From NCBI GenBank assembly GCA_964230645.1, contig CAXRHT010000002.1, positions 160,001 to 224,000 on the forward strand: a stretch of 64,000 bases of DNA, written 5' to 3'. The notes under the pieces were generated by a model. The model had not been told where the DNA came from and did not search any database. It saw nothing but the letters and a program-made list of their open reading frames with translations. Shown piece by piece: positions 20,309 to 36,440 of the stretch (position 1 is the stretch's first letter; the number at the start of each line of letters is the position of its first letter). This stretch comes from Bdellovibrionales bacterium. Its GTDB lineage: Bacteria > Bdellovibrionota > Bdellovibrionia > Bdellovibrionales > JAGQZY01. The translations under genes and the position numbers were made by a program.

Positions 20309-21601
20309 ATGACAAGCACCACTATTCTGACTGTCTTACTTGTTTTCAGTTTCCTCATCGGTCGATTTCTTCGACGCTTTGAAACGCCCCACTTTGTCTT
20401 CTCAGGTGTGATTTATCTTATCATAGGTTTACTAGCCGGTTCTTATATGGGCCTTGGCTTACTTTCCGAACATCTGCTTTATCGCATGGACCCCCTCATT
20501 GATTTGCTCACAGGTTTTGCGGGTTTTCTTTTAGGGCTTCGAGTGAAGTTTCTTTTGCAAAACACTAAAACTTTTTCCAGTGGTGTGATCAACGGTCTTT
20601 TGGTTTTTGTAGCTATGTCCTTCACCCTTTACTTTCTCTCACCCTTGGCTGTGCAGTTTGAAAACATCGGCCTTGATATTGGTGATATGAATTTTTTCTC
20701 AGAAGAGCAGGCCGATCGCTTCTGGCTTTTTGGTTTTATCCAAGAGATCAATCGTCGTCAGTTTTGGTTCGCTCTGGGAGCCAGTGCCACCGCATGCTCA
20801 GCTTCACTTCTATCTTTAGGGATGATCTCTAAATTTAATAAATCACGCTCTGAAATCACTCGTGTGTTAAGTATTCTTGCACCCACCGGACAGGTCATTG
20901 CAGTCACTCTTCTAGGAATTGTTCTCGCTATGGCCAGTGGTGACACCACTGCCACCTCACTTCATATTTCAGTCACCGAATGGCTTCTTGCAACGATCAC
21001 CTCAGGGCTTTTGTGTGGAATCCTTTTCTCCCTTTTTATCGGCAAACAGTCTGATGAAAAGCGTATTATGCTCGCCGCCCTCGGCGCGATTATTTTTGCC
21101 GCAGGTCTTGGAACCCTATTAAGTGTTTCCTCAATGTTTGTTTGCTTTCTAACGGGCCTTACAATCAGTTTATTTTCCACCTATTCCGATGTGTTAAAGG
21201 AGAACCTGGTAAGAATCGAGGAGCCCATTTTCGTCCTTCTGCTTATTTTTGGAGGAGCCACTTGGCAGCCTGAAATCAACCGCTCTTGGCTTCTGCCAGC
21301 GGCTTATTTCGTTGTGCGCGCTATATTTCTTTCTGGACTTACCCATAGAATCCACCGCGTGCTCGGGCGACGAAAACTCTCTCGTCTTGGACAGGGACTA
21401 CTCGGACAAGACTTGATTGCTGTGGCCATAGCTTTAAGCTTAACCAAAGAATTTCCAGAGCTCGCCCAATTGTTTTTGACCACTATTTTGGGAAGTATCT
21501 TTTTAAACGACGCTGTGGCCAACTCACTGCTTAAAAAAGTAATATTGGATAATGAACAGGTCATAGAAGTAAAACCCATAGAAAAAGAAGGTGCATCGTG
21601 A
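20309..21601 (+). CDS. Cation:proton antiporter (CPA)-fold membrane protein, divergent
   Basis: About 12 TM helices with NhaP/KefB-like layout; first gene of the trk operon. Confidence 0.6.
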   Translation: MTSTTILTVLLVFSFLIGRFLRRFETPHFVFSGVIYLIIGLLAGSYMGLGLLSEHLLYRMDPLIDLLTGFAGFLLGLRVKFLLQNTKTFSSGVINGLLVFVAMSFTLYFLSPLAVQFENIGLDIGDMNFFSEEQADRFWLFGFIQEINRRQFWFALGASATACSASLLSLGMISKFNKSRSEITRVLSILAPTGQVIAVTLLGIVLAMASGDTTATSLHISVTEWLLATITSGLLCGILFSLFIGKQSDEKRIMLAALGAIIFAAGLGTLLSVSSMFVCFLTGLTISLFSTYSDVLKENLVRIEEPIFVLLLIFGGATWQPEINRSWLLPAAYFVVRAIFLSGLTHRIHRVLGRRKLSRLGQGLLGQDLIAVAIALSLTKEFPELAQLFLTTILGSIFLNDAVANSLLKKVILDNEQVIEVKPIEKEGAS

Positions 21602-22935
21602 AAATTGTGATTGTAGGAGCCGGCGATGTGGGAAGTTTCTTGGCCAAAGAGCTCTCCCAACGCTCTGAGGACGTAATTATCGTCGACACCAATGAACGCG
21701 CTCTGGAGAGAGTCGAAGAAAAAACAGATGTCATGACCTTTCGAGGCAATGGAACCTTTCGTAAAACTCTTAACGAAGTCGGCGTGGGTTCAGCGGATCT
21801 TGTCGTAGGTGTTACAAGCCACGATGACACCAATCTTGTTATCACCTCACTTGCCAATTCTCTAGGGGCAAAAAGAACGGTGGCTCGAGTCGACGCTCCA
21901 GAATTTTTTATGACCACAGGAGGAATCGAGAGGGGAGTGCTGGGTAGTTTTGCTATTGTGTGTGCCGCTCGTCTTGTGAGTGCCGAGCTTTTAAGACTTG
22001 TCAGGCAAACCGACCTTCCCTTTGTTGAGAACTTCTCATCAAATTCCATTTCCGTAGCCATGGTTGAAGTGACGGAAAACTGTCGTTACATAGAAAAATC
22101 AGGCTCTGATGTGGACCTTGGAAAAAGTGCTAAAGTCATTGGTGTGTTTCGTGACGGGGAGCTTCGGCGCTGTGCAGATCTTGCCCACCTTTATAATGGC
22201 GATAAAATTCTCTTTGCCTCAAAACTCGATAAACTACCCATTGCCATGAGACGCTTGGTGCAAATTCCCGGAAAAAAAGCGGTGATCATTGGCGGAGGGG
22301 ATGTGGGCTACCAATTGGCTAAATCCTTACAAGAGGTTGAAAACAGGCTCACCCTTATTGATGTGGATCGAAGGCGCTGTGAGTTCTTGGCTGATAAACT
22401 GGATCACGCCACCATCGTTCACGGCGATGGTACAAGCCTTCCCCTTCTTCAGGATGAGCACGTAGAAATGGCCGACTACACCTTGGCTGTAACTAAAGCC
22501 GATGAAGTGAATTTGATGTCCTCGTTGGTGAGCCAGGAGATCGGAGTGAAAAACTCCTACACCCTTGTGCATAGGCCGGGATACGCCCATGTGTACGAAC
22601 ATTTAGGGGTTAAGGGAACGGCCAGTGCGCACGAGTTGATCTCAAAAGCCGTAAACAAATACTTTCCCAATCAAACTTTGCTCACCGATGCGCCCATTCC
22701 AGACACTGAGTATTTAGTTGGAGAGTTTCAGTTGCCCCAGGAAATCAAAAATTCGACTCTTAAAATAAGAGATCTCTCCATTCCACCAGGGTGTTACTTG
22801 GTGGGGATTTCTCGCAAAGAGGAATTTGCTTTTAGCGACGGGGACTCTGAAATTTATCCCGGTGACATTGTCATCATTGTGTTGAAAAGAAGTGAACTCA
22901 AGGGACTTGAGAATATGTTCCGTAAACTAAAGTAG
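21598..22935 (+). CDS. trkA: Trk system K+ uptake regulator TrkA
   Basis: Two RCK domains, GAGDVG and GGGDVG. Confidence 0.92.
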   Translation: MKIVIVGAGDVGSFLAKELSQRSEDVIIVDTNERALERVEEKTDVMTFRGNGTFRKTLNEVGVGSADLVVGVTSHDDTNLVITSLANSLGAKRTVARVDAPEFFMTTGGIERGVLGSFAIVCAARLVSAELLRLVRQTDLPFVENFSSNSISVAMVEVTENCRYIEKSGSDVDLGKSAKVIGVFRDGELRRCADLAHLYNGDKILFASKLDKLPIAMRRLVQIPGKKAVIIGGGDVGYQLAKSLQEVENRLTLIDVDRRRCEFLADKLDHATIVHGDGTSLPLLQDEHVEMADYTLAVTKADEVNLMSSLVSQEIGVKNSYTLVHRPGYAHVYEHLGVKGTASAHELISKAVNKYFPNQTLLTDAPIPDTEYLVGEFQLPQEIKNSTLKIRDLSIPPGCYLVGISRKEEFAFSDGDSEIYPGDIVIIVLKRSELKGLENMFRKLK

Positions 22936-22941
22936 GTCTTA

Positions 22942-24402
22942 TTGCATAAAACGATCGTCGCCTACTATGTGGGGCAGCTTTTTATTGTACTTGCCTTTTT
23001 TATGATGGCACCCCTGGCTTTGGCCTATGTGGATAGCTCTCAAAAATCGCTACTGGCCTATTCTATCTCCAGCGGCCTTTCGATGGGCATTGGACTTTTT
23101 CTTCGATACGCCTGTCATCGCATGAAAGTAGACATTCGCATGGTCTCTCGCAAAGAAGCTTTTGGAATTGTGGCCATTGGATGGGTGGGCTCCGGTTTTA
23201 TCGCGGGCCTTCCTTTCTATCTAGAAGGAAGTATTCTTTCGATCAGCTCCTCAACCTTTGAGGCCATTTCGGGTTTAACCACTACAGGTGCGACTGTAAT
23301 CAGTGAGATAAACACTCTCTCTCGAGCCACTCATTTGTGGCGCGTTCTTTTGCATTGGATTGGCGGCATGGGGATTGTCGTTTTATTTGTGGCGATCTTT
23401 CCCCAGTTAGGACTTGGAGGAAAGCATCTTTTTAAAACAGAGGTAGCCGGACCCATTACCGAAGGTTTAAAACCTCGCATTAAACAAACCGCTTTGAGAC
23501 TTTGGTATGTTTATATGCTCTTCACTGCCACCTGTACGGGTCTTTTGTTTTTATCAGGCTTAAGCCTTTTTGATGCGATCTGCCACGCTTTCTCAACCCT
23601 GTCGACAGGAGGATTTTCTACTAAGGCTGCAAGCCTTGGAGCTTTTGATAATCCATTTGCGGAATGGGTAGTGATCTTCTTTATGCTCGCTGGAGGGATC
23701 AACTTTGGCCTGTACTACGGCCTTTTTCGTGGCCAGTTTAATAGACTTTTTACAAGTGCTGAGGTTCGATTTTTTGTGGCTCTTAATCTCGTCGTCGCGG
23801 TCATTATCTTTTTTGCGACCACTAGTCTTAACAGTGGCAACTGGCACGAAGAATTTCGAGACGCCCTTTTCCAAACTGTCGCTGTGACAACCACCACAGG
23901 GCTTATGACGGCTGACTTTGATATCTATCCCTTAGTGAGCAAATACCTTCTCTTTATATGTATGTTCATTGGCGGCTGTGCGGGCTCAACGGCGGGCGGG
24001 CTTAAAGTTTCAAGGGTTCTCATTGTGTTTAAACGCTGTATCCAGGAGTTAAGACTCACTCTGCATCCCCAAGAGGTCGTTAGCACCAAGCTTGGCAAGC
24101 AAACCGTTTCAAGACGAGTTCTCTCCTCTGTTTTTATTTTCTTTTGTTCTTATTTTCTTCTCTACGCCTTTGGAGTTTTTCTCATGTTCGTTCTCGGTAT
24201 GGACTGGGTGGGGGCTGCCTCCAGTGTGGTGGCATGTCTTTCCAGTGTGGGTCCAGGTTTTGGCTCAGTGGGTCCGACTCAGAATTATGAGTTCATCCAT
24301 CCTCTTGGAAAGTTTATCCTGTGTTTTTATATGATCGCCGGACGTTTGGAGATCTTTGTTTTACTGACTCTGTTCACCCCCTCGTTCTGGAGAAAAGGAT
24401 AG
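22942..24402 (+). CDS. trkH: Trk system K+ channel TrkH
   Basis: SGLTTTGAT, GGMGIVV, STGGFS, GGCAGSTAGGLK, GRLE. Confidence 0.94.
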   Translation: MHKTIVAYYVGQLFIVLAFFMMAPLALAYVDSSQKSLLAYSISSGLSMGIGLFLRYACHRMKVDIRMVSRKEAFGIVAIGWVGSGFIAGLPFYLEGSILSISSSTFEAISGLTTTGATVISEINTLSRATHLWRVLLHWIGGMGIVVLFVAIFPQLGLGGKHLFKTEVAGPITEGLKPRIKQTALRLWYVYMLFTATCTGLLFLSGLSLFDAICHAFSTLSTGGFSTKAASLGAFDNPFAEWVVIFFMLAGGINFGLYYGLFRGQFNRLFTSAEVRFFVALNLVVAVIIFFATTSLNSGNWHEEFRDALFQTVAVTTTTGLMTADFDIYPLVSKYLLFICMFIGGCAGSTAGGLKVSRVLIVFKRCIQELRLTLHPQEVVSTKLGKQTVSRRVLSSVFIFFCSYFLLYAFGVFLMFVLGMDWVGAASSVVACLSSVGPGFGSVGPTQNYEFIHPLGKFILCFYMIAGRLEIFVLLTLFTPSFWRKG

Positions 24403-27400
24403 ATGAGAAAGATATTTATACTCTTTATTCTCTTTTCAATCTGCATTGCCCTAAAGCAATTTGGGATTCTGAGTGATTCGCATAGCTCCGTTCTCCTAGC
24501 CATTGGCTTAGTGATTCTCTCAGCTTACACTCTTTCCGAGGTAGGCTCTTCTTTAAAACTGCCTCGTGTGACCGGTTATATTTTAACGGGATTGCTGCTC
24601 GGGCCCTATGCTCTAAAAATTCTTTCAACCAATGTGGTCAAAGAAATTGAGATGTTCAATACTCTTGCTATTGGACTTATTGCGATCACAGCAGGTCTTG
24701 AGCTTCACTTTAGTTCCCTTAAAAAAGTCATAGCCCCGATACTATCGACCACGGCCCTTAAGGTGATCCTTCTGGGCGTTACTTTTGTTGGCGGCACCTA
24801 TATTGCGAATCAATATGTCTATGATTTCAACCTTGGAATGGGGCTTCCCCTTATTTCTCTGGCTCTCATATTCGCGGCTCTTTCTGTAGGAACTTCTCCC
24901 GCAATTTCCATCGCTGTCATCTCAGAAATGAAGGCCAAGAGTCGTATGAGCCAAATGGTCATCGGTTCAGCCATCGTAAAAGATGTTGTGATGGTCATCA
25001 CTCTTGCTGTCGCTCTTTCCTTTGCCAAATCGGTTGCAAGTGGTGGTGGCGATATGGCCGGAAGCTTTATCCATCTTATGGAAGAGTTGGGACTGTCACT
25101 GGTAGCAGGGGTCATTTTAGGGACGATATTTCTTCTCTATATCCGCTTTATTAGACAAGAAATGTTTTTATTTATCGCTGCCATGATCCTGGGAACCGCC
25201 GAGATCAGTGAAGCTATTCATCTTGAATTACTGTTAGTTTTTATTGTGGCTGGTATTTTAGTCCGAAACTTTTCAAAAGACTCCCACTTTCTCCATGAAT
25301 CTTTAGAGAAGGTATCATTACCAGTCTTTGTGGTCTTTTTCACCAACGTTGGTGCAGGCCTTAATTTAGAAACAACCTGGCAATTTCTCCCAGTAGCAGG
25401 CATTTATTTTGGTGCAAGAGCCATCTCCTTTCTTCTAGGCTCGTGGACGGCTGGTAGTTTACACGGGGAGAGCTCAGGGATTAAGAAAAAAATCTGGCTC
25501 GGCTATCTACCACAAGCCGGAGTCACACTGGGACTCATCCAAATTGCAAGCCGAGACTTCCCTGAACAGGGCGAGCTTATCACCAATATCGGAATTGGGT
25601 TAGTCACAATAAATCTTCTCATTGGACCTATTTTTCTCCGAATGGTTTTAAAAGGGGAAGAACCCAAACAAGAAGAGTCTCCAGAGGAGGACAGTATGTC
25701 CGTAGAGCCAACCAAAGAGGTGAATGAAGACAATGTCGAGTCTGAAGCACCGAAAGCTTATGAAGAAGAGTTTCAACTAATGCTTCACTCGAAAACAGAA
25801 GTTTTCGAAGATGAATTTTTGGAAAAACATTTTCATGAGTTGGCGGGCAAATACTTTGAGATTTTTCGTAAACATCAAATTCTCCCACAAAAAAACATTC
25901 TAAAAACTTTTGTGAATGACCTGGATCAGATGAGTAACCTCAGTGAGAGGGAAATTGTCGCAAAAATTGACGATCATTTCCGTCGTATGGGAGCTAAGGG
26001 ACGAGATATCTACAATGCCATGAGCGAGTTGCAAAAAGAAATCGACTCGGTTCTGGTCTTAAAAAGTCGACCCATGCCTAAATCAGCCATCTATATACAA
26101 AAAGGCGATGGTTATTGGGTACGACTAAAAAAGATTTTTTCCCGTCCTCTTTATTGGTTCAACAAGAATCCCGAAAGAGATATTCCGCTAAGAAAACTGA
26201 CAAAATACAATCTTGAGCCACTGATTGGCTCCTTCACGGTGCAATTGATCAATTCCTGGTATCACCTTCTTGGAAAACATATCGAGATTTTTCAGCGCTC
26301 CCTTGAAACTCAAAACTTTGAAAATCATGAGATCGTAGCTAAAATTAAAAAAGAAAACGAGTTTTGGTTGAGAGCCATTCAATCCGACTTCAATAAGGAG
26401 TTTGGAAGACAAGCGACAAGCTGGGCCTCTCAGCTCGCCAAAGTGAACACCGCCTATATGTCTGACGGGCAGATCCGCTACTCACAAGTAGAGCCAAAAA
26501 TTACCGAAATGTTCGATCAGGCTAAAAACGACTCGCTAGCTTGGGAAGAAAAATTTGTTTACTGCCGAAATCGACTCAAAGTGATCGTACAATCAGCACT
26601 CCTTTCTCAAGCAGTTGAAAAACTCCTTGAAGAAAAGTTTTTCCAACCAGTGGAGGTGGCTCAAGACAACGCCGACACTCTTGTTTCAGAAGTTTTTGAC
26701 TACTTTAAAACCATTGAGAAAAAGATCAATGAAACCGAACAAGGAGACGAAGAGGCTTTTAAAAAGCTTTTGGATGAGACTCAAGCCTTTGCAAAAGAAA
26801 ATATCCAAGCCGATTTAAAATCAAAATACGTTAGAGGAAGCTTTCGTCTTCTCAATCGCGATATCTCTATTAATTTAAAGAAAAGTCTTCCCAAAGAAGA
26901 AGGGACTTTCCAAATTGCCTCCGAGAACACTTCACCGCATCAAGTGCAGAGCCCCTCTGAGATTGTGGTTAAAAAAATCAACCTGCATGAACTCTTTGAG
27001 CAAAGTATTTTAATAAACTTTCTTCCAGTCATTGAAGAGCGTATAGAAGGAGTGTCTAATTATCTTGAATCTCTTTTAATGGAAATGGAGCAGGCTTTTT
27101 CGATCATCACTTATAGTCTAGAGTCTCAGATCGGGGGAGAGGATTCCGAAGTCGACCCTGATGAGATGACTGAAAGTTTGCAGTCCTCTATTAGTGCCGA
27201 AAAAGAAAAGATTCAGGAGCTTTACGACGGCCTAATCGAATACATTCGCTCTTCGAATGAGTCGACAGAGAAACTCCTAGAAGAGTGCCAAATGGAAGTT
27301 CGCCAAGGAATCGAACGCTTTTCAGTGGTGCACACGGCTAAAAATCAGTTTCGCCAGAGAATTCAGTCCACTGTACAGAGCATTCGGGATCGTAAAGAAG

Positions 27401-28629
27401 TGGTCGATGGGGTTATTACGCGCTACTACCGTAAATTGAAAAAACTCGCTCTTCAGAAAAGCGAAAGGGATATCGATCGCACCTTGAAGAAGAAATTGGC
27501 CTCCCACACTCTTGATACGGCTACCGTGCGAGAGTTTATTAAACAGACCTATGATTTCAATCATCAGATTCAAGACCTTCCGAGGCTCTATTATAGGCTT
27601 TTCAGCCTTGATCCCATCCAAGATCGCCGCTTTTTTGTGGCCTATAAAAAGCGTGAAAAACATTTCAAAAATTTCGCTGGCAAAGAATCAAAAAGTGAAA
27701 GCCAAAAGATTCTAATCATCGGTGACCGAGGTATGGGTAAATCCTCGATGATCAATGTGGCTCAGATGGACATTGAAACGGAAAGACTGATTCGTATAGA
27801 AGGGGACGATTATCGCGGACCTTTGGCTGTGTTATCGCGAGCTATCAATGCGAAAAACTCTGCCACTTCCATTCTCTCAACTCTTAGAAAAACCCCGGCC
27901 ACGGTTATTATCGACAACGCTGACCAAATGCTCAATAGACACAACCTGAGTCAGTTTGAAGGGCTTTTTGAGGTGATTAGTAAGTCGCCTCAGAACACCC
28001 ACTGGATTCTTTCTATTACCAAGTTTAACTTAGAGTCTCTCGACCGGGCTTTTAAGATTCGTAGCCTTTTTAGTAAGATTATTGATCTTCATGAGATTAA
28101 TTTAGAAACGGCGAAAGAAGTTATTTTGACAAGACATCGTCTCAGTGGACTTGAAGTGGAATTCCCGAAAACTTTTGTGAGTGAATTTGCGCAGAGAGCG
28201 GGCCTGTCCACGGAGGATGAAATGTTTTTTCGTGTTTTATTTGAGCGCTCCCATGGTCATCTACGTCATTTGATTTATTTGTGGCTTAGAAGCCTTGAGA
28301 GCTCTGATGGGAAAACGATTCACTTGTCTATGAGTAAGTCTGTGGATCGAGGATTGCCAATGCTGCATGAATTCTCATTTCTACAAAAGCATATCCTCGC
28401 CCAGCTTTACTGCACCCATAGTGCCAGTGTACAGAAAATCAGTCACACCCTTGGTGTCTCCTATTCCGTTATCGATAACGAAACTCAGTATTTGGAGCAT
28501 TGCCACTTGATTCAGTCAAAAGGCATTGATCGCAGTGTGTTTGAAATCCCTAACCCCTTGGTTTTACCTGTGGGCGCTGAACTGAAAAAGGAGGGCATTC
28601 TCAATGCAGGATTCTACAACTTCCGCTAA
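24403..28629 (+). CDS. CPA2-type antiporter fused to a helical region, P-loop NTPase and C-terminal wHTH-like region
   Basis: N-terminal ~415 aa LPRVTGY, TSPA, KDV, PQAGV; Walker A GDRGMGKS at 27721; Walker B-like VIIDNAD. Confidence 0.8.
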   Translation: MRKIFILFILFSICIALKQFGILSDSHSSVLLAIGLVILSAYTLSEVGSSLKLPRVTGYILTGLLLGPYALKILSTNVVKEIEMFNTLAIGLIAITAGLELHFSSLKKVIAPILSTTALKVILLGVTFVGGTYIANQYVYDFNLGMGLPLISLALIFAALSVGTSPAISIAVISEMKAKSRMSQMVIGSAIVKDVVMVITLAVALSFAKSVASGGGDMAGSFIHLMEELGLSLVAGVILGTIFLLYIRFIRQEMFLFIAAMILGTAEISEAIHLELLLVFIVAGILVRNFSKDSHFLHESLEKVSLPVFVVFFTNVGAGLNLETTWQFLPVAGIYFGARAISFLLGSWTAGSLHGESSGIKKKIWLGYLPQAGVTLGLIQIASRDFPEQGELITNIGIGLVTINLLIGPIFLRMVLKGEEPKQEESPEEDSMSVEPTKEVNEDNVESEAPKAYEEEFQLMLHSKTEVFEDEFLEKHFHELAGKYFEIFRKHQILPQKNILKTFVNDLDQMSNLSEREIVAKIDDHFRRMGAKGRDIYNAMSELQKEIDSVLVLKSRPMPKSAIYIQKGDGYWVRLKKIFSRPLYWFNKNPERDIPLRKLTKYNLEPLIGSFTVQLINSWYHLLGKHIEIFQRSLETQNFENHEIVAKIKKENEFWLRAIQSDFNKEFGRQATSWASQLAKVNTAYMSDGQIRYSQVEPKITEMFDQAKNDSLAWEEKFVYCRNRLKVIVQSALLSQAVEKLLEEKFFQPVEVAQDNADTLVSEVFDYFKTIEKKINETEQGDEEAFKKLLDETQAFAKENIQADLKSKYVRGSFRLLNRDISINLKKSLPKEEGTFQIASENTSPHQVQSPSEIVVKKINLHELFEQSILINFLPVIEERIEGVSNYLESLLMEMEQAFSIITYSLESQIGGEDSEVDPDEMTESLQSSISAEKEKIQELYDGLIEYIRSSNESTEKLLEECQMEVRQGIERFSVVHTAKNQFRQRIQSTVQSIRDRKEVVDGVITRYYRKLKKLALQKSERDIDRTLKKKLASHTLDTATVREFIKQTYDFNHQIQDLPRLYYRLFSLDPIQDRRFFVAYKKREKHFKNFAGKESKSESQKILIIGDRGMGKSSMINVAQMDIETERLIRIEGDDYRGPLAVLSRAINAKNSATSILSTLRKTPATVIIDNADQMLNRHNLSQFEGLFEVISKSPQNTHWILSITKFNLESLDRAFKIRSLFSKIIDLHEINLETAKEVILTRHRLSGLEVEFPKTFVSEFAQRAGLSTEDEMFFRVLFERSHGHLRHLIYLWLRSLESSDGKTIHLSMSKSVDRGLPMLHEFSFLQKHILAQLYCTHSASVQKISHTLGVSYSVIDNETQYLEHCHLIQSKGIDRSVFEIPNPLVLPVGAELKKEGILNAGFYNFR

Positions 28630-29344
28630 TCAATTAGGAATGGAGTTCCCTGAACTGTCCATTCAGGTGGTCTCTTTTTTCCAAATCGGCTTTTTCGTGG
28701 TTATGGCCATTTTGGCCTACTATTTGAGTCGACGTTTCATGCAGATTCTTTCAAGCTCTGGAGTGATTGAAAAACGCTCTCTGACCTATCAAATTCTTAA
28801 CATCTCAACCTTTGCTTTTCCTGGAATTATCTTCCTCATTGGTCTGACCCGCGTTTCCCAAAACTCCCTTTTCGTTTCCCTTTTATTCTTTGTGATTTTT
28901 AGCATTATTTTCGGCTTTTCTTTGATTCAGCCGGCTAGAAACATCCTTGCCTCTCTTTTCATTACTCTAAGAGGGGAATTAAGAGTGGGCGATTACATTA
29001 GTCTTGCACAGGTGGAAGGAGAGGTTTTAGCGGTCGGCGCTTTTAACGTACAGATCCAATCAAAGACGGGATCTAAAACCTTTATTCCCAACTACCATAT
29101 TCTACAAAGCCCCTTTGAAATCCATGCGAAAAAAGGCGGGCCTTCAATAATGATAAATATTCCCTCAGACAAAATTTCTAAAAAAAATCTCGAGCGATTG
29201 GCTCATCTATGTCCTTTTAAAAGAAGAGGTTCGGATATTCGTATCTCAACTATTGATGGCAATCATAAGTTAACAATAGAAATCGTGAACAGACAGTGTC
29301 GCCCCTGGGTTAATAAATACTTTTCCAAACACTCACACAATTAA
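28604..29344 (+). CDS. Short MscS-family mechanosensitive channel protein
   Basis: 3 TMs, NILAS, LRVGDYI, EGEV, FIPN; reduced C-terminal domain. Confidence 0.75.
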   Translation: MQDSTTSANQLGMEFPELSIQVVSFFQIGFFVVMAILAYYLSRRFMQILSSSGVIEKRSLTYQILNISTFAFPGIIFLIGLTRVSQNSLFVSLLFFVIFSIIFGFSLIQPARNILASLFITLRGELRVGDYISLAQVEGEVLAVGAFNVQIQSKTGSKTFIPNYHILQSPFEIHAKKGGPSIMINIPSDKISKKNLERLAHLCPFKRRGSDIRISTIDGNHKLTIEIVNRQCRPWVNKYFSKHSHN

Positions 29345-31419: not shown

Positions 31420-31495
31420 TCTTCAACATTATAGATCAGCTTCCTCTTTTTGCGAACACCCGACCAAGGACTGTGAAAACTCTTTACTCATCGTT

Positions 31496-31688
31496 TTGTC
31501 ATTCTGAGTGCGATTGTCATTCTGAGCGAATTTGTCATTCTGAGCGCAGCGAAGAATCTAACGCCACTAAGCTCTGTTATCATTTAAAGTTTTCGGTGAC
31601 AGGTCCTTCGCTGCGCTCAGGACGACAGTGTTAAAATCGCTCAGAATGACAGTCGCACTCAGAATGACAACTGCGCTCAGTATGACAC
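31496..31688. repeat. REP/REPIN-like cluster 5
   Basis: Three TGTCATTCTGAG units, spacer, then four inverted CTCAG(A/G/T)A(T/C)GACA units. Confidence 0.9.
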
Positions 31689-31707
31689 TATGATGGAAGT
31701 TTCAATT

Positions 31708-32874
31708 TCATCGAATCGCTTCGATTCCAGTCACTTGCAAACCAATCACAAGGCGATGAATGTCTTCAGTTCCCTCGTAGGTATTAACTGTCTCCAGATT
31801 CATCATATGGCGAATCACAGGATATTCATCGATAATTCCGTTTCCACCCAACATATCGCGAGCGTCACGAGCGACATCAAGAGCCATGCGGCAGTTATTC
31901 ATCTTTGCTAGCGACACATGGTGAGGATGCATCTCGCCTTTTTCTTTCACTCGTCCAAGTTGCAGAGCCAAAAGCTGTCCCTTGGTGATCTCTTGTACCA
32001 TTTTAACAAGCTTTGCCTGAGCCAATTGGTAACCAGCCAAAGGTTTAGTGAAAATAACTCGCTCTTTGGCGTAGTTAAGCGCCTCATGATAGCAAGTGTT
32101 TGCCGCCCCAAGAACTCCCCAGGCAATCCCATAGCGAGCCTGTGTAAGGCAGCTAAGTGGGCCCTTTAGACCTTCCACTCCTGGCAGAATGGCATCTTCA
32201 GGAACCACACAGTCCTGCATATGTAGCTCACTGGTGGTACTCACACGAAGGGAGAATTTTCCTTTCATCGTGGAGGTGCTAAATCCATCGGTTTTGGTTT
32301 CAACAATAAAGCCACGCACCTTGCCATCAAGTTTGGCCCACACAATGGCGACATCGGAAACACAACCATTTGTGATCCACATTTTATTTCCGTTGAGTTT
32401 GTAGCCACCATCGACTTTTTCAGCCGTTGTTAGCATTCCTCCTGGGTTAGATCCGGCGTCCGGCTCAGTGAGTCCAAAACAACCGATCATTTCTCCTTTG
32501 GCAAGACGGGGAAGGTACTTATTTTTTTGCTCTTCAGAGCCAAAAGCATAAATAGGGTACATCACAAGAGAGCCCTGCACGGAGCAAAAAGAACGCACCC
32601 CAGAATCTGCTCGTTCAAGCTCTTGCATCATGAGTCCATAGGAAACATCTCCTAATCCCGGGCAGTCGTAGCCTTTGATGGTGGGACCAAAGAGTCCAAG
32701 TTCAGCAAACTGTGGAACAAGGTCCATAGGAAACTTTTCATCTCGGTGACATTCCTGAAGACGAGGAATGATCTCTTTTCCGGCGAATTCACGCACGGTG
32801 TTTCGAACCATTAGCTCTTCTTCCGTTAGTAAGCTGTCAAAATCCATATAATTGAGCGATTCGTAAGCGGCCAT
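31708..32874 (-). CDS. gcdH: Glutaryl-CoA dehydrogenase-like acyl-CoA dehydrogenase
   Basis: ELERADSGVRS, SVQGSLVM, GCFGLTEPDAGS, ARYGIAWG, YEGTEDIH; SD AGGAG before ATG 32874. Confidence 0.88.
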   Translation of the reverse strand: MAAYESLNYMDFDSLLTEEELMVRNTVREFAGKEIIPRLQECHRDEKFPMDLVPQFAELGLFGPTIKGYDCPGLGDVSYGLMMQELERADSGVRSFCSVQGSLVMYPIYAFGSEEQKNKYLPRLAKGEMIGCFGLTEPDAGSNPGGMLTTAEKVDGGYKLNGNKMWITNGCVSDVAIVWAKLDGKVRGFIVETKTDGFSTSTMKGKFSLRVSTTSELHMQDCVVPEDAILPGVEGLKGPLSCLTQARYGIAWGVLGAANTCYHEALNYAKERVIFTKPLAGYQLAQAKLVKMVQEITKGQLLALQLGRVKEKGEMHPHHVSLAKMNNCRMALDVARDARDMLGGNGIIDEYPVIRHMMNLETVNTYEGTEDIHRLVIGLQVTGIEAIR

Positions 32875-33006
32875 CAGAACTCCTTTTTGTGAGCATCGAT
32901 CACATATTGCCATCTTACCAGAGATTTGAAAAAATAACGTGCTAGGCCCCTTTTGAGTATGCAGTGCAGTACGAAAAGGAGCCAGGCACCTAAGAGAGGA
33001 GTCGCT

Positions 33007-35217
33007 GTGAGTGCATTTAATCGCGCCGAGGTTGTAGACAAGAATTTTTTGAAGTCCGTTAAAGATCGGCATTTCCCAGAGGCCAAAACTCACTGGGAGT
33101 TTTCAGGCTCCTCACTCACGGGACCTGAACTGATTGACTTGTTTGAGACCCAAGTGATGAGTCGGCTCCTTGATCTTCGCGCTAGAGAACTTAAAAAAGA
33201 CAACCTTTGCTACTACACCATCGGCAGTGCTGGACATGAGGGCAATGCCGCTTTTGCCAAAGCCTTCAATCTCACTGACATGGCGTTTCTCCATTACCGC
33301 AGTGGAGCCTTTTATCTTCAGCGCGCCAAACAAAAAGGGGGGAGCACGCCTCTCTACGATATGCTCCTTTCTTTTATGGCCTCAAAAGAAGACCCCATCT
33401 CAGGGGGGCGTCATAAAGTTATTGGCCACAAAGACCTTTTTATCCCCCCTCAGACAAGTACGATTGCCTCGCATTTGCCAAAAGCTTTAGGAGCCGCACT
33501 TTCCATAAGTAAATCAAAAGATCTGGGACTTGAGCCTTATCTCCCACACGACAGCGTGGCTCTTTGTAGTTTCGGTGATGCTTCAGCCAATCATTCAACC
33601 GCCCTCGGTGCGATCAACACGGCCTCCTGGGTGGCCTACCAAAACATAAAACTTCCCCTGGTTTATTTTTGCGAAGACAATGGCCTTGGGATTTCTGTCA
33701 AAACTCCCAACGATTGGATTAAAAGAAATTTCTCCGATCGTCCAAGCCTTCTCTATTTAGAGTGTGACGGCTTGAACCTTATTGATGTTTACCAGACCTG
33801 TCGGCAGGCGGCCTCTTACGCTCGTAACCGCAAAAAGCCTGTTTTTATCCGCATGCGAACCATCCGCTTATTAGGGCATGCGGGCTCGGATGTGGAATCC
33901 AATTACCACAGTCTGACATTTATCAAGGACACCGAAAAAGACGATCCTCTTTTACATAGCGCGAGACTCCTTATTGAAAACAATCTTCTCTCCGCTGAGG
34001 AAATACTCAATCTTTATAAAAACATGAAAGCGCGTATTAAGCATGTCTCCGAGGAGGTGACTACCAGGAAACCTCTCAGTGACATCACTGAAATAGAGGC
34101 GAGCATCACCGCTTGTGATCACCCAAAAGAGCCCATGCCAGAATCAAGTCATGGGGATAGAGAAAAAATCTTTGATCGTGAATTCTCTAAGCTTGAAACC
34201 CCACAGCATATGGCAAAACTCATCAATTGGGGTCTAACGGACATCATGTTGCAGTACCCTCAGACCGTGGTTTTTGGTGAAGATGTGGCTCAAAAAGGCG
34301 GGGTTTATCACGTCACCGACAATTTAAAAAACCGCTTTCGCTCAAGAAGAGTTTTCAATTCCCCCCTTGATGAGCAGTCGATCCTTGGCACAGCGATTGG
34401 CTTAGCCCATAACAACTTCCTACCCATTCCTGAAATTCAATTCTTAGCTTACGTTCACAATGCCGAAGATCAGATAAGAGGGGAGGCGGCCACTCTCGCT
34501 TTCTTTTCTAAGGGACAATACACCAATCCCATGGTGATTCGTATAGCCGGTCTTGCTTACCAAAAAGGCTTTGGGGGTCATTTTCATAACGATAATTCAT
34601 TGGCTGTTTTTAGAGACATTCCAGGTCTTATTATCGCCGTTCCAAGCCACGGGGCCGACGCGGTAAAGATGCTACGCACCTGTGTGAAAATGGCCCACGA
34701 GCAGGGAAGAGTTTGTGTTTTTATTGAGCCCATTGCACTTTATATGACAAGAGACCTGCATGAAGAAGGCGATAAACTTTGGACTTTCGAGTATCCAAAG
34801 CCAGGCGAGGTGAGTGAATTAGGAGAATTTGAAGTCTATGGGAAAGGGGAGGTGGCTTTGATCACCTATGGAAACGGCACCTATTATTCCCTTCAGGCTC
34901 AAAAAGTATTAAAGGATCAACATAAGATTGATTGCGAAGTGATTGATCTTAAATGGATTGCACCGATTGATTATGAAAAATTAAAAGAGCAACTTAGAGG
35001 CAAAAAGAAAGTTCTGTTTGTCGAAGAGTGCCGAACCACCGGCTCACTGGCGGAATCGGTAGTGGCTCGATTAGCCGTTCTTAACACAGGGAGCGAGTTT
35101 AGAATCCACGGCGCCGCAGATTGTTTTATCCCACTGGGGCCTGCTGCCACAGCAGGCCTTCCCTCCAAAGAATCAATCGTTAAGGAAGTCTTAGATTTTA
35201 CCGGGAGTTCGAAATGA
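33007..35217 (+). CDS. Fused alpha/beta E1 2-oxoacid dehydrogenase (ThDP-dependent)
   Basis: GDASANH...EDNG, GHAGSD, FGEDV, EIQFLAY, GGHFHN; SD GAGGAG before GTG. Confidence 0.9.
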   Translation: MSAFNRAEVVDKNFLKSVKDRHFPEAKTHWEFSGSSLTGPELIDLFETQVMSRLLDLRARELKKDNLCYYTIGSAGHEGNAAFAKAFNLTDMAFLHYRSGAFYLQRAKQKGGSTPLYDMLLSFMASKEDPISGGRHKVIGHKDLFIPPQTSTIASHLPKALGAALSISKSKDLGLEPYLPHDSVALCSFGDASANHSTALGAINTASWVAYQNIKLPLVYFCEDNGLGISVKTPNDWIKRNFSDRPSLLYLECDGLNLIDVYQTCRQAASYARNRKKPVFIRMRTIRLLGHAGSDVESNYHSLTFIKDTEKDDPLLHSARLLIENNLLSAEEILNLYKNMKARIKHVSEEVTTRKPLSDITEIEASITACDHPKEPMPESSHGDREKIFDREFSKLETPQHMAKLINWGLTDIMLQYPQTVVFGEDVAQKGGVYHVTDNLKNRFRSRRVFNSPLDEQSILGTAIGLAHNNFLPIPEIQFLAYVHNAEDQIRGEAATLAFFSKGQYTNPMVIRIAGLAYQKGFGGHFHNDNSLAVFRDIPGLIIAVPSHGADAVKMLRTCVKMAHEQGRVCVFIEPIALYMTRDLHEEGDKLWTFEYPKPGEVSELGEFEVYGKGEVALITYGNGTYYSLQAQKVLKDQHKIDCEVIDLKWIAPIDYEKLKEQLRGKKKVLFVEECRTTGSLAESVVARLAVLNTGSEFRIHGAADCFIPLGPAATAGLPSKESIVKEVLDFTGSSK

Positions 35218-36221
35218 GTAAAAAAAGAATCGTCGTAGTCTGTCCTGGAAGAGGTTCATACACCAAAGAAAATCTAGGCACCCTCATTGATAGAACGTCC
35301 ATGAAAGAAGAACTTAGACTTCTTGATGAAGAAAGAACAAGGCTCAATTATCCCTCACTGAGTGAACTCGATGGGGCCGAAAAGTTTAAAACTTCAGTAC
35401 ACACAAAAGGGGAGCATGCCTCTCCTCTAATTTATGCTTGCAGTAAAGCCGACTTTTTAGAGATCAATCGAGAGGATTACGAAGTGGTCGCCATCGCCGG
35501 AAACTCCATGGGATGGTATTTAACTCTAGCTTTCTCAGGCGTCCTTGATGAACTCGACTCCTATCGCTTAATACAAACTATGGGCTCAATGATGGAAGAG
35601 GGACTCATTGGCGGACAAGTCATTTACCCAATTATCGATAAAACCTGGAACATTGACCCTAAAAAAGAAAAGCTTATTAGCAATATTTTAAAAGAAATCA
35701 ATGAAAGACAGGAGTGCGAGGTTTTTGTCTCCATCCACTTAGGAGGCTATAAAGTTCTTGCAGGTAACAAAGAGGGCGTAAAACAACTTCTAGAAAAACT
35801 CCCCAAACAAGAAAACTACCCCTTCCAACTGGTCAACCACGGCGCTTTTCACACCCCTCTATTAAAGGACATCTCAGAAAAAGCCGAACACGGCCTATAC
35901 CAATTAAAATTCAGCAAACCTAAAGTTCCCATAATTGATGGCGAAGGAAAAATCTGGCAACCCTATTCCACTGATCTAAAAAACCTTTACGATTACACCT
36001 TAAAAACCCAGGTCCTTGAAACCTACAATTTCACTAAATCCATAGAAGTCGCCCTAAAAGAATTCGCCCCCGACCACCTGGTCCTATTAGGCCCCGGCAA
36101 TTCTTTAGGAGGAGCCATCGGCCAAATCATGGTCCAAAACCAATGGAAAGGAATAAAAACAAAAGAGGACTTCTCAAACCTACAGCTAAAAAAACCTTTT
36201 CTTATCTCACTGGGGTTATAA
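35214..36221 (+). CDS. FabD-like acyltransferase, atypical
   Basis: CPGRG, GNSMG nucleophile elbow, AFHTP, LGPG; ATGA overlap with E1. Confidence 0.85.
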   Translation: MSKKRIVVVCPGRGSYTKENLGTLIDRTSMKEELRLLDEERTRLNYPSLSELDGAEKFKTSVHTKGEHASPLIYACSKADFLEINREDYEVVAIAGNSMGWYLTLAFSGVLDELDSYRLIQTMGSMMEEGLIGGQVIYPIIDKTWNIDPKKEKLISNILKEINERQECEVFVSIHLGGYKVLAGNKEGVKQLLEKLPKQENYPFQLVNHGAFHTPLLKDISEKAEHGLYQLKFSKPKVPIIDGEGKIWQPYSTDLKNLYDYTLKTQVLETYNFTKSIEVALKEFAPDHLVLLGPGNSLGGAIGQIMVQNQWKGIKTKEDFSNLQLKKPFLISLGL

Positions 36222-36254: not shown

Positions 36255-36440
36255 GAATCATTTTGTCATCTTTTGAAATCTTGGATATGGGAAAGTTATA
36301 CCGCAGGCTCGAGCAACGAGCGCTGCGTATCTTGGGTTGCAGCACGAAGTGATGCAATCCGGGAGACGAAGTGCACCCGCTTGCATGCCTGAGGGATAGC
36401 TTTCCCATATCCAAGATTTCAAAAGATGACAAAATGATTC
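36255..36440. repeat. 186-bp hairpin element with perfect 41-bp inverted arms (MITE/REPIN-like)
   Basis: 36255-36295 is the reverse complement of 36400-36440; nested inner stem. Confidence 0.9.

Follow-up and report, generated by a model that had tools for sequence, protein, structure and literature searches.

We describe a three-gene locus of a Bdellovibrionales bacterium in a 64,000-nt stretch of its genome (contig CAXRHT010000002.1, positions 160,001 to 224,000), referred to below as the window. The locus encodes a fused alpha/beta 2-oxoacid dehydrogenase (E1) dependent on thiamine diphosphate (ThDP), a FabD-fold protein beside it (termed AT, gene and protein alike) and a divergent glutaryl-coenzyme A (CoA) dehydrogenase, gcdH (Table 1). 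The E1 frame starts with a GTG preceded by an AGAGGAG ribosome site, and the AT start codon overlaps the E1 stop in the ATGA at 35214-35217. No lipoyl domain was found in the window, and both genes for dihydrolipoyl acyltransferase (E2) and both for dihydrolipoyl dehydrogenase (E3) of the source genome lie outside it. Coordinates and domain searches confirmed what an earlier note on this DNA had said of the layout (an E1 alpha/beta fusion with an ATGA overlap, gcdH divergent at 132 nt, and no lipoyl, E2 or E3 gene in the window).

Table 1. Positions of the three genes and their intergenic region in the window.
Feature	Position	Strand	Basis
gcdH, glutaryl-CoA dehydrogenase, 388 aa (P0003)	31708..32874	-	ATG start at 32874; PDB matches
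Divergent intergenic region, 132 nt	32875..33006		Ribosome-binding motifs ahead of both starts; no repeats found
Fused E1 alpha/beta ThDP-dependent 2-oxoacid dehydrogenase, 736 aa (P0001)	33007..35217	+	Pfam, PDB alignments, conservation, model
FabD-fold serine acyltransferase/hydrolase (AT), 335 aa (P0002)	35214..36221	+	Alignment, profile, fold

The gcdH product has glutaryl-CoA dehydrogenases as its top PDB matches (E 2e-132; next family 4e-79), conserves the DSG.RS and TYEGT motifs when aligned to human GCDH (E 2e-132), and is encoded by the sole match at E<=1e-60 in the source genome. E1 carries the Pfam domains E1_dh, Transket_pyr and Transketolase_C in a single chain (predicted local distance difference test score, pLDDT, of the model 89.1). 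It reaches no NCBIfam cut-off, scoring below every pyruvate dehydrogenase (PDH) model and 19.3 bits on the SucA model. Among solved structures, its nearest relatives in sequence are subunits of pyruvate and branched-chain E1s, and no SucA or DHTKD1 chain occurs among its 39 PDB sequence matches. Like the bacterial alpha2beta2 branched-chain and pyruvate E1s (PDB 1um9, 1w85, 1qs0), with which it shares the domain order, E1 has the GDA...DN ThDP motif, the activating glutamate (Glu456) and two histidines, His291 and His527, whose aligned counterparts in the solved alpha/beta enzymes are the alpha and beta histidines; these residues, together with Arg135-His136-Lys137, are invariant in 53/53 aligned E1s. 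Unlike them, it is a single chain in an operon without E2 or E3, has Arg-His-Lys instead of a hydrophobic loop, and lies far below the NCBIfam PDH cut-offs.

In excerpts of the literature, from which all papers are cited here, the two histidines of alpha/beta E1s are described as proton donors to the lipoyl sulfurs (PMC8146983). Since both are retained, lipoyl chemistry is expected of the fused E1. The Arg135-His136-Lys137 segment aligns with the Met128-His131 loop, hydrophobic in the Thermus branched-chain E1, where it lines the side-chain pocket; judged from the alignment, the basic loop would suit a substrate that carries a distal carboxylate. A predicted complex of two E1 beta halves (residues 398-732) and AT, with the alpha half and lipoyl carriers left out, scored 0.00 in two runs.

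For the linkage of the three genes we collected 111 AT loci, comprising 6 from named genomes (single-protein scan), 9 from the same phylum, 16 from Pseudomonadota and 80 from metagenomes (the best of 588 matches). The earlier note had proposed co-occurrence as a check on the trio. E1 lies directly upstream of AT in 108 loci and in 106/106 of those with at least 300 nt of upstream sequence (the three loci where no E1 was seen have just 54-273 nt upstream), and AT usually starts no more than some tens of bases from where E1 ends. A gcdH-like gene is present in 76/111 loci (47/58 of the long ones), and its placement takes five forms: upstream in the same direction in 26 loci, upstream and divergent in 13, immediately downstream in 20, separated by one gene in 16 and further away in 1. 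At the genome level, gcdH was found in 27/27 AT genomes versus 52/151 genomes of the phylum, AT itself being present in 10 of those 151. The E1 family occurs in 33/401 sampled Pseudomonadota genomes and in at least these 10. Among 127 loci scanned, GcvH was never linked to the E1-AT pair, and lipoyl domains appeared in two, each approximately 8 kb away as part of a separate E2 gene. Three AT-less loci (L139, L150, L153) have a glutathione S-transferase gene immediately ahead of E1 or gcdH.

The step from 2-oxoadipate to glutaryl-CoA, and on to crotonyl-CoA, belongs to the catabolic route of lysine and tryptophan. We consider it likely that 2-oxoadipate is the substrate of E1 and that the product reaches glutaryl-CoA. 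The gene order in one genome (G318) is aminotransferase, E1, AT, amaB (817 bits, cut-off 730) and an amaA-like gene; in another (G396), amaB lies immediately downstream of AT. Ruegeria sp. AD91A has an aminotransferase, gcdH, E1 and AT in a row, the aminotransferase (66%) being related to that of G318. In 18 marine loci AT is followed by a homocitrate-synthase-like gene (411.7 bits against a cut-off of 413.55), and in G078 an HglS-family gene sits between oppC and gcdH, the same slot that is occupied by the AT-E1 pair in G122 and G014. Because the linked pipecolate/aminoadipate, homocitrate-synthase-like and HglS-family genes make or consume 2-oxoadipate or its precursors, they point to this substrate. 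The gene context (gcdH, amaB, the amaA-like and homocitrate-synthase-like genes and the HglS slot) thereby supports the pathway that the earlier note had proposed. For Phaeobacter, a pipecolate route has been shown, with no gene named for the 2-oxoadipate step in the excerpted text (PMC5653290).

Two of these neighbors are curious in their own right. The homocitrate-synthase-like gene, which lies between AT and gcdH (L087:9002-10129 and 17 other marine loci), is a biosynthetic entry enzyme in a catabolic operon. The HglS-family gene of G078 (L156:6557-7384) is a short DUF1338 gene directly upstream of gcdH, although HglS as characterised does not pass through glutaryl-CoA; what the short bacterial form makes may be a different product. 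HglS shares the proposed substrate with E1; unlike the E1 route, which would give glutaryl-CoA and NADH, it is described as an Fe(II) enzyme giving D-2-hydroxyglutarate (bioRxiv 10.1101/450254). Its long form was found in 0/17 AT genomes versus 49/401 overall (Fisher p 0.24), and in 5/16 genomes with an AT-less E1 (p 0.018), all five in one clade. These five (L143, L144, L148, L151, L153) are also those in which gcdH is not beside E1.

For the source genome, which is 99.6% complete, cleavage of the tryptophan ring would be the most plausible origin of 2-oxoadipate. Tryptophan-related genes resembling tryptophan 2,3-dioxygenase (TDO) and KynB are present (the queries were named by reading their sequence rather than by a family scan), and a cluster outside the window (G000:C2:756284-767879, L179) could end in 2-oxoadipate. 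The latter encodes a short-chain dehydrogenase/reductase (SDR), a luciferase-like monooxygenase, an aminomuconate-semialdehyde-dehydrogenase-like enzyme, the beta and alpha subunits of 2-aminophenol 1,6-dioxygenase, an asparaginase-II-like protein and Rid. The adjacency of SDR and monooxygenase recurs in L181, L182, L185, L186, L192, L196 and L200. Together with the TDO-like and KynB-like genes, and with no kynureninase found, the cluster is possibly part of an undescribed kynureninase-free tryptophan route. A search of this genome for 3-hydroxyanthranilate 3,4-dioxygenase gave no match, but no control matched either. A kynurenine-linked SDR was tried as a marker of the trio and rejected as non-discriminating (8/27 AT genomes, 6/16 AT-less and 11/37 others, E<1e-55).

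The second gene of the operon is FabD-like in fold and unlike FabD at the sites that define it. AT scores 67.6 bits on the TIGR00128 FabD model, far from the cut-off of 260.9, and is mis-annotated as malonyltransferase in public records. Its AlphaFold model (pLDDT 96.7) has the FabD fold over the full length, with Z of 31-33 to FabDs and a root-mean-square deviation of 2.2-2.6, and keeps the catalytic dyad of Ser98 (codon 35505-35507) and His213 (35850-35852) as well as the PG.G and G.S.G motifs. Alignment to E. coli FabD gives PGRG and GNSMG for these motifs and places Arg13 at Gln11, Asn97 at His91 and Met123 at Arg117 of FabD; the gene also lies outside the fatty-acid operon. The earlier note had read the two motifs and a methionine for the malonate-binding arginine from the letters alone. 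This reading holds family-wide in 160 rows (111 loci, 48 rows of alignment A1 and the query), with Ser98 in 160, His213 in 160, Arg13 in 159, Asn97 in 158 and Met123 in 149, and arginine or lysine at position 123 in none; the structural comparison that it had suggested agrees with a FabD-like dyad and fold. Other conserved basic residues are Lys18, Arg41, Lys282 and Lys317. The subfamily is compact (121 representatives at E<=1e-30 among 1.84 billion), and the closest named relatives are from Bdellovibrionales. We infer that a positive charge shifted from position 117 to position 11 would favor dicarboxylic acyl groups of greater length.

Elsewhere, the source genome has a true fabD in a fatty-acid operon (297.8 bits), one E2 gene in sucA-sucB-lpd and another in lipA-E2-lpd-lipB, two E3 genes, a separate split E1 alpha/beta pair, SucA, gcvP, and GcvH beside gcvT. 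Hence lipoyl carriers and E3 are not scarce in this organism, and AT is not its malonyl transferase; the non-malonyl role foreseen in the earlier note is supported by this and by the gene context.

Whether AT takes the place of E2, as the earlier note had proposed, can be judged from genomes that have E1 alone. AT was found in 17 of the 33 Pseudomonadota genomes with E1 orthologues; in the remaining 16, AT is missing beside E1 and a profile search gave no gene of the AT subfamily (best 80 bits versus 402.8 for the positive control), and in 9 of these gcdH lies beside E1. Conversely, AT was never found without E1 in front of it (17/17 genomes; 106/106 checkable loci). AT depends on E1, not the reverse. 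In the E1 tree (a quick IQ-TREE version, midpoint-rooted), the AT label changes at least 4 times (starred branches), with AT-less E1s nested among AT-linked ones. The active-site residues are identical with and without AT, and no E1 column tracks its presence apart from one 10-genome clade. There is also no extra E2 that compensates for a missing AT, as three E2 genes are found in 14/17 AT genomes and in 14/16 AT-less genomes, and all 43 E1 genomes examined carry 2-5. Since AT-less genomes keep the same active site and add no E2, E1 can apparently work with general machinery, and E2 replacement is not supported as a general rule. GcvH as the carrier, the other half of that proposal, is possible, with GcvH in 27/27 AT genomes; it is not singled out, given E2 genes in every E1 genome and no linked lipoyl gene. 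A second GcvH-like gene of the order was rejected as a dedicated carrier, having no lipoyl lysine motif, sitting by glnA and not being found in the source genome. This gene has an acidic tail (L132-L134 and L136-L138, in G118, G043, G122, G069, G014 and G086) and directly follows glnA in four cases.

The reading we favor, with a probability of roughly 45%, is that of a bacterial 2-oxoadipate E1 that borrows its lipoyl carrier and E3, with AT as an optional accessory that unloads glutaryl to CoA. E1 would decarboxylate 2-oxoadipate on ThDP and, given the retained histidines, reductively acylate a lipoyl group, so that glutaryl-dihydrolipoyl would form on a carrier supplied from elsewhere in the genome. 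By analogy with human E1a, which borrows E2o and E3 (PMC8146983), the SucB lipoyl domain would be the favored candidate, the second E2 or GcvH being other possible ones; the lipoyl domain of E. coli E2o takes glutaryl at a rate of 22 per s (PMC5986005). A Ser98 acyl-enzyme of AT may then move glutaryl to CoA rather than to water, glutaryl-CoA would be turned by GcdH into crotonyl-CoA, and one of the two E3 enzymes of the source genome may reoxidise the carrier. Where AT is absent, the borrowed E2 core may do the transfer, and if a borrowed E2 can complete the reaction, the dispensability of AT is as expected. No family III CoA-transferase was found in 6/6 AT genomes searched (controls matched in 6/14), and free glutarate would thus, other activating enzymes aside, be hard to reuse. 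As gcdH also needs glutaryl-CoA, transfer to CoA is favored over hydrolysis.

Several observations weigh against this picture. No amaB, kynureninase or homocitrate synthase was found in the source genome, which leaves its supply of 2-oxoadipate hypothetical, and 14/27 AT genomes gave no match to amaB or to the kynurenine-linked SDR. Short DUF1338 genes occur in 8/17 AT genomes, and the E1-AT pair is therefore no clean substitute for HglS. The metagenome loci behind the linkage counts are partly redundant. In AT, the positions of FabD Arg190 and Arg287, which presumably have a role in CoA binding, are non-basic. Canonical SucA handles 2-oxoadipate in vitro, at 22 versus 99 per s (PMC5986005), and a dedicated 2-oxoadipate E1 is thus not strictly needed. 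Finally, loss of Arg117 and of the histidine before the catalytic serine are described as marks of acyl hydrolases (PMC11775670).

This last point leads to the main rival for the role of AT, a housekeeping acyl hydrolase that would clear lipoyl carriers loaded by E1 of stalled or incorrect acyl groups, such as glutaryl, in the way that AT-like acyl hydrolases serve polyketide carrier proteins. AT indeed resembles the acyl hydrolases PksD and PedC of trans-AT polyketide synthases (PKS) in its fold, its accessory character, the lack of Arg117 (0/160 rows) and the asparagine in place of histidine before Ser98 (PMC11775670), and its dispensability and the glutamine at the FabD Arg287 position (152/160 rows, with no conserved basic residue) would suit such a role. 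The hydrolases, however, have glutamine or histidine at position 117 and in the first loop (Q124A inactivates PksD; PMC11775670), whereas the AT family has methionine at 117 and arginine in the first (oxyanion) loop, and no PKS or acyl carrier protein (ACP) neighbor. No PKS gene is found among the recurrent neighbors of the 111 loci, and AT is not in a trans-AT PKS cluster. PksD also ranks below FabDs in the AT profile search (E 5e-10 versus 9e-20) and 50th in Foldseek, other conserved basic residues are present in AT, and in the 6 AT genomes searched no family III CoA-transferase was found with which to recover glutarate. We regard hydrolysis as rather unlikely. Slightly ahead of it, though still unlikely, is a strict form of E2 replacement, where AT fully takes over from the E2 core wherever it is present, a free carrier such as GcvH shuttles glutaryl, and AT-less lineages have switched to an ordinary E2. 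The constant position of AT close behind E1 and the presence of GcvH in every AT genome fit this well, as does P0260, a single partial, apparently in-frame fusion of an E1 C-terminus to AT without a lipoyl domain, which weighs little. The nesting and label changes on the E1 tree, the absence of E1 columns that follow AT outside one clade, the 2-5 E2 genes of every E1 genome and the unlinked GcvH speak against it. The only full-length fusion, P0273, the one match among 4505 longer candidates, was set aside as a probable frameshift artefact, since its residues ~577-741 are a non-homologous stretch unlike the E1 C-terminal domain. The broader idea of an E2-core-free complex, in which a FabD-fold transferase from fatty-acid synthesis, with its carboxylate-anchoring arginine moved from 117 to 11, makes glutaryl-CoA with the glutaryl group of a lipoyl domain that is either free-standing or borrowed, we hold to be doubtful, with perhaps some chance of being right.

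The remaining alternatives concern the substrate and the acceptor. E1 might act on a branched-chain or another 2-oxoacid, the link to gcdH reflecting amino-acid catabolism in general. Its nearest solved relatives and the many AT genomes with no 2-oxoadipate source found are in line with this, but the repeated linkage to gcdH, amaB, amaA-like and homocitrate-synthase-like genes, the HglS slot swap, the basic pocket loop, the separate split alpha/beta E1 of the source genome and the scores below every NCBIfam PDH cut-off make it improbable. Less probable still is that AT loads glutaryl onto ACP as a primer for making pimelate (biotin) or other fatty acids. The FabD fold normally serves ACP, the source genome has bioB-bioF-bioD/A, and alphaproteobacteria offer a precedent in BioZ, which belongs to a glutaryl-primed route to pimelate. 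Yet bioB was not found in 10/27 AT genomes, 8 of which are 99-100% complete, no ketosynthase or biotin-synthesis gene is among the neighbor families present in at least 3 loci, the birA-like neighbor seen in 12 marine loci lies on the opposite strand, and the gcdH linkage points to catabolism.

Among known systems, the favored arrangement of a 2-oxoadipate E1 with borrowed partners is closest to human E1a (DHTKD1), which uses a borrowed E2o (DLST) and E3 (PMC8146983). Both are orphan ThDP-dependent E1s without a cognate E2 upstream of glutaryl-CoA dehydrogenase, with two active-site histidines for lipoyl acylation and a shared fold (Foldseek match, 15% identity). The fused E1 departs from the canonical three-component 2-oxoacid dehydrogenase complex in having no co-encoded cognate E2. 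DHTKD1, by contrast, is a SucA-type chain without a FabD-like partner, whereas the E1 of the window is a fusion of alpha and beta subunits; on these sequence grounds, it is probably an independent solution.

The trio is flanked on both sides by long inverted-repeat elements (window 31489-31695 and 36255-36440), of which the latter folds at -121.9 kcal/mol (z -16.7). These are dispersed in the source genome (40 and 27 places) and thus resemble repetitive extragenic palindromes rather than operon-specific elements. Further upstream, window 20309-29344 contains cation/proton-antiporter-like, TrkA-like and TrkH-like genes and, after them, a gene for a 1408-aa protein and then a mechanosensitive-channel-like gene (labels assigned by eye from sequence). 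The N-terminus of the 1408-aa protein looks antiporter-like, and its long tail includes a Walker A motif, also by eye.

We found no published characterisation of the E1-AT pair in a literature search that did not extend to supplements, subscription journals and fitness tables. As of 2019, a route from 2-oxoadipate to glutaryl-CoA was described as unobserved in bacteria in the excerpted text of Thompson et al. (bioRxiv 10.1101/450254). The E1 family is a concrete candidate for this bacterial step, apparently of other ancestry than DHTKD1. If the E2-core-free complex were true, it would give the E2 step a second chemistry, unrelated to the first, and would supply the missing bacterial route. Should AT accept acyl groups carried by lipoyl domains, it would join the worlds of lipoyl and pantetheine carriers and provide a new acyl-unloading tool.

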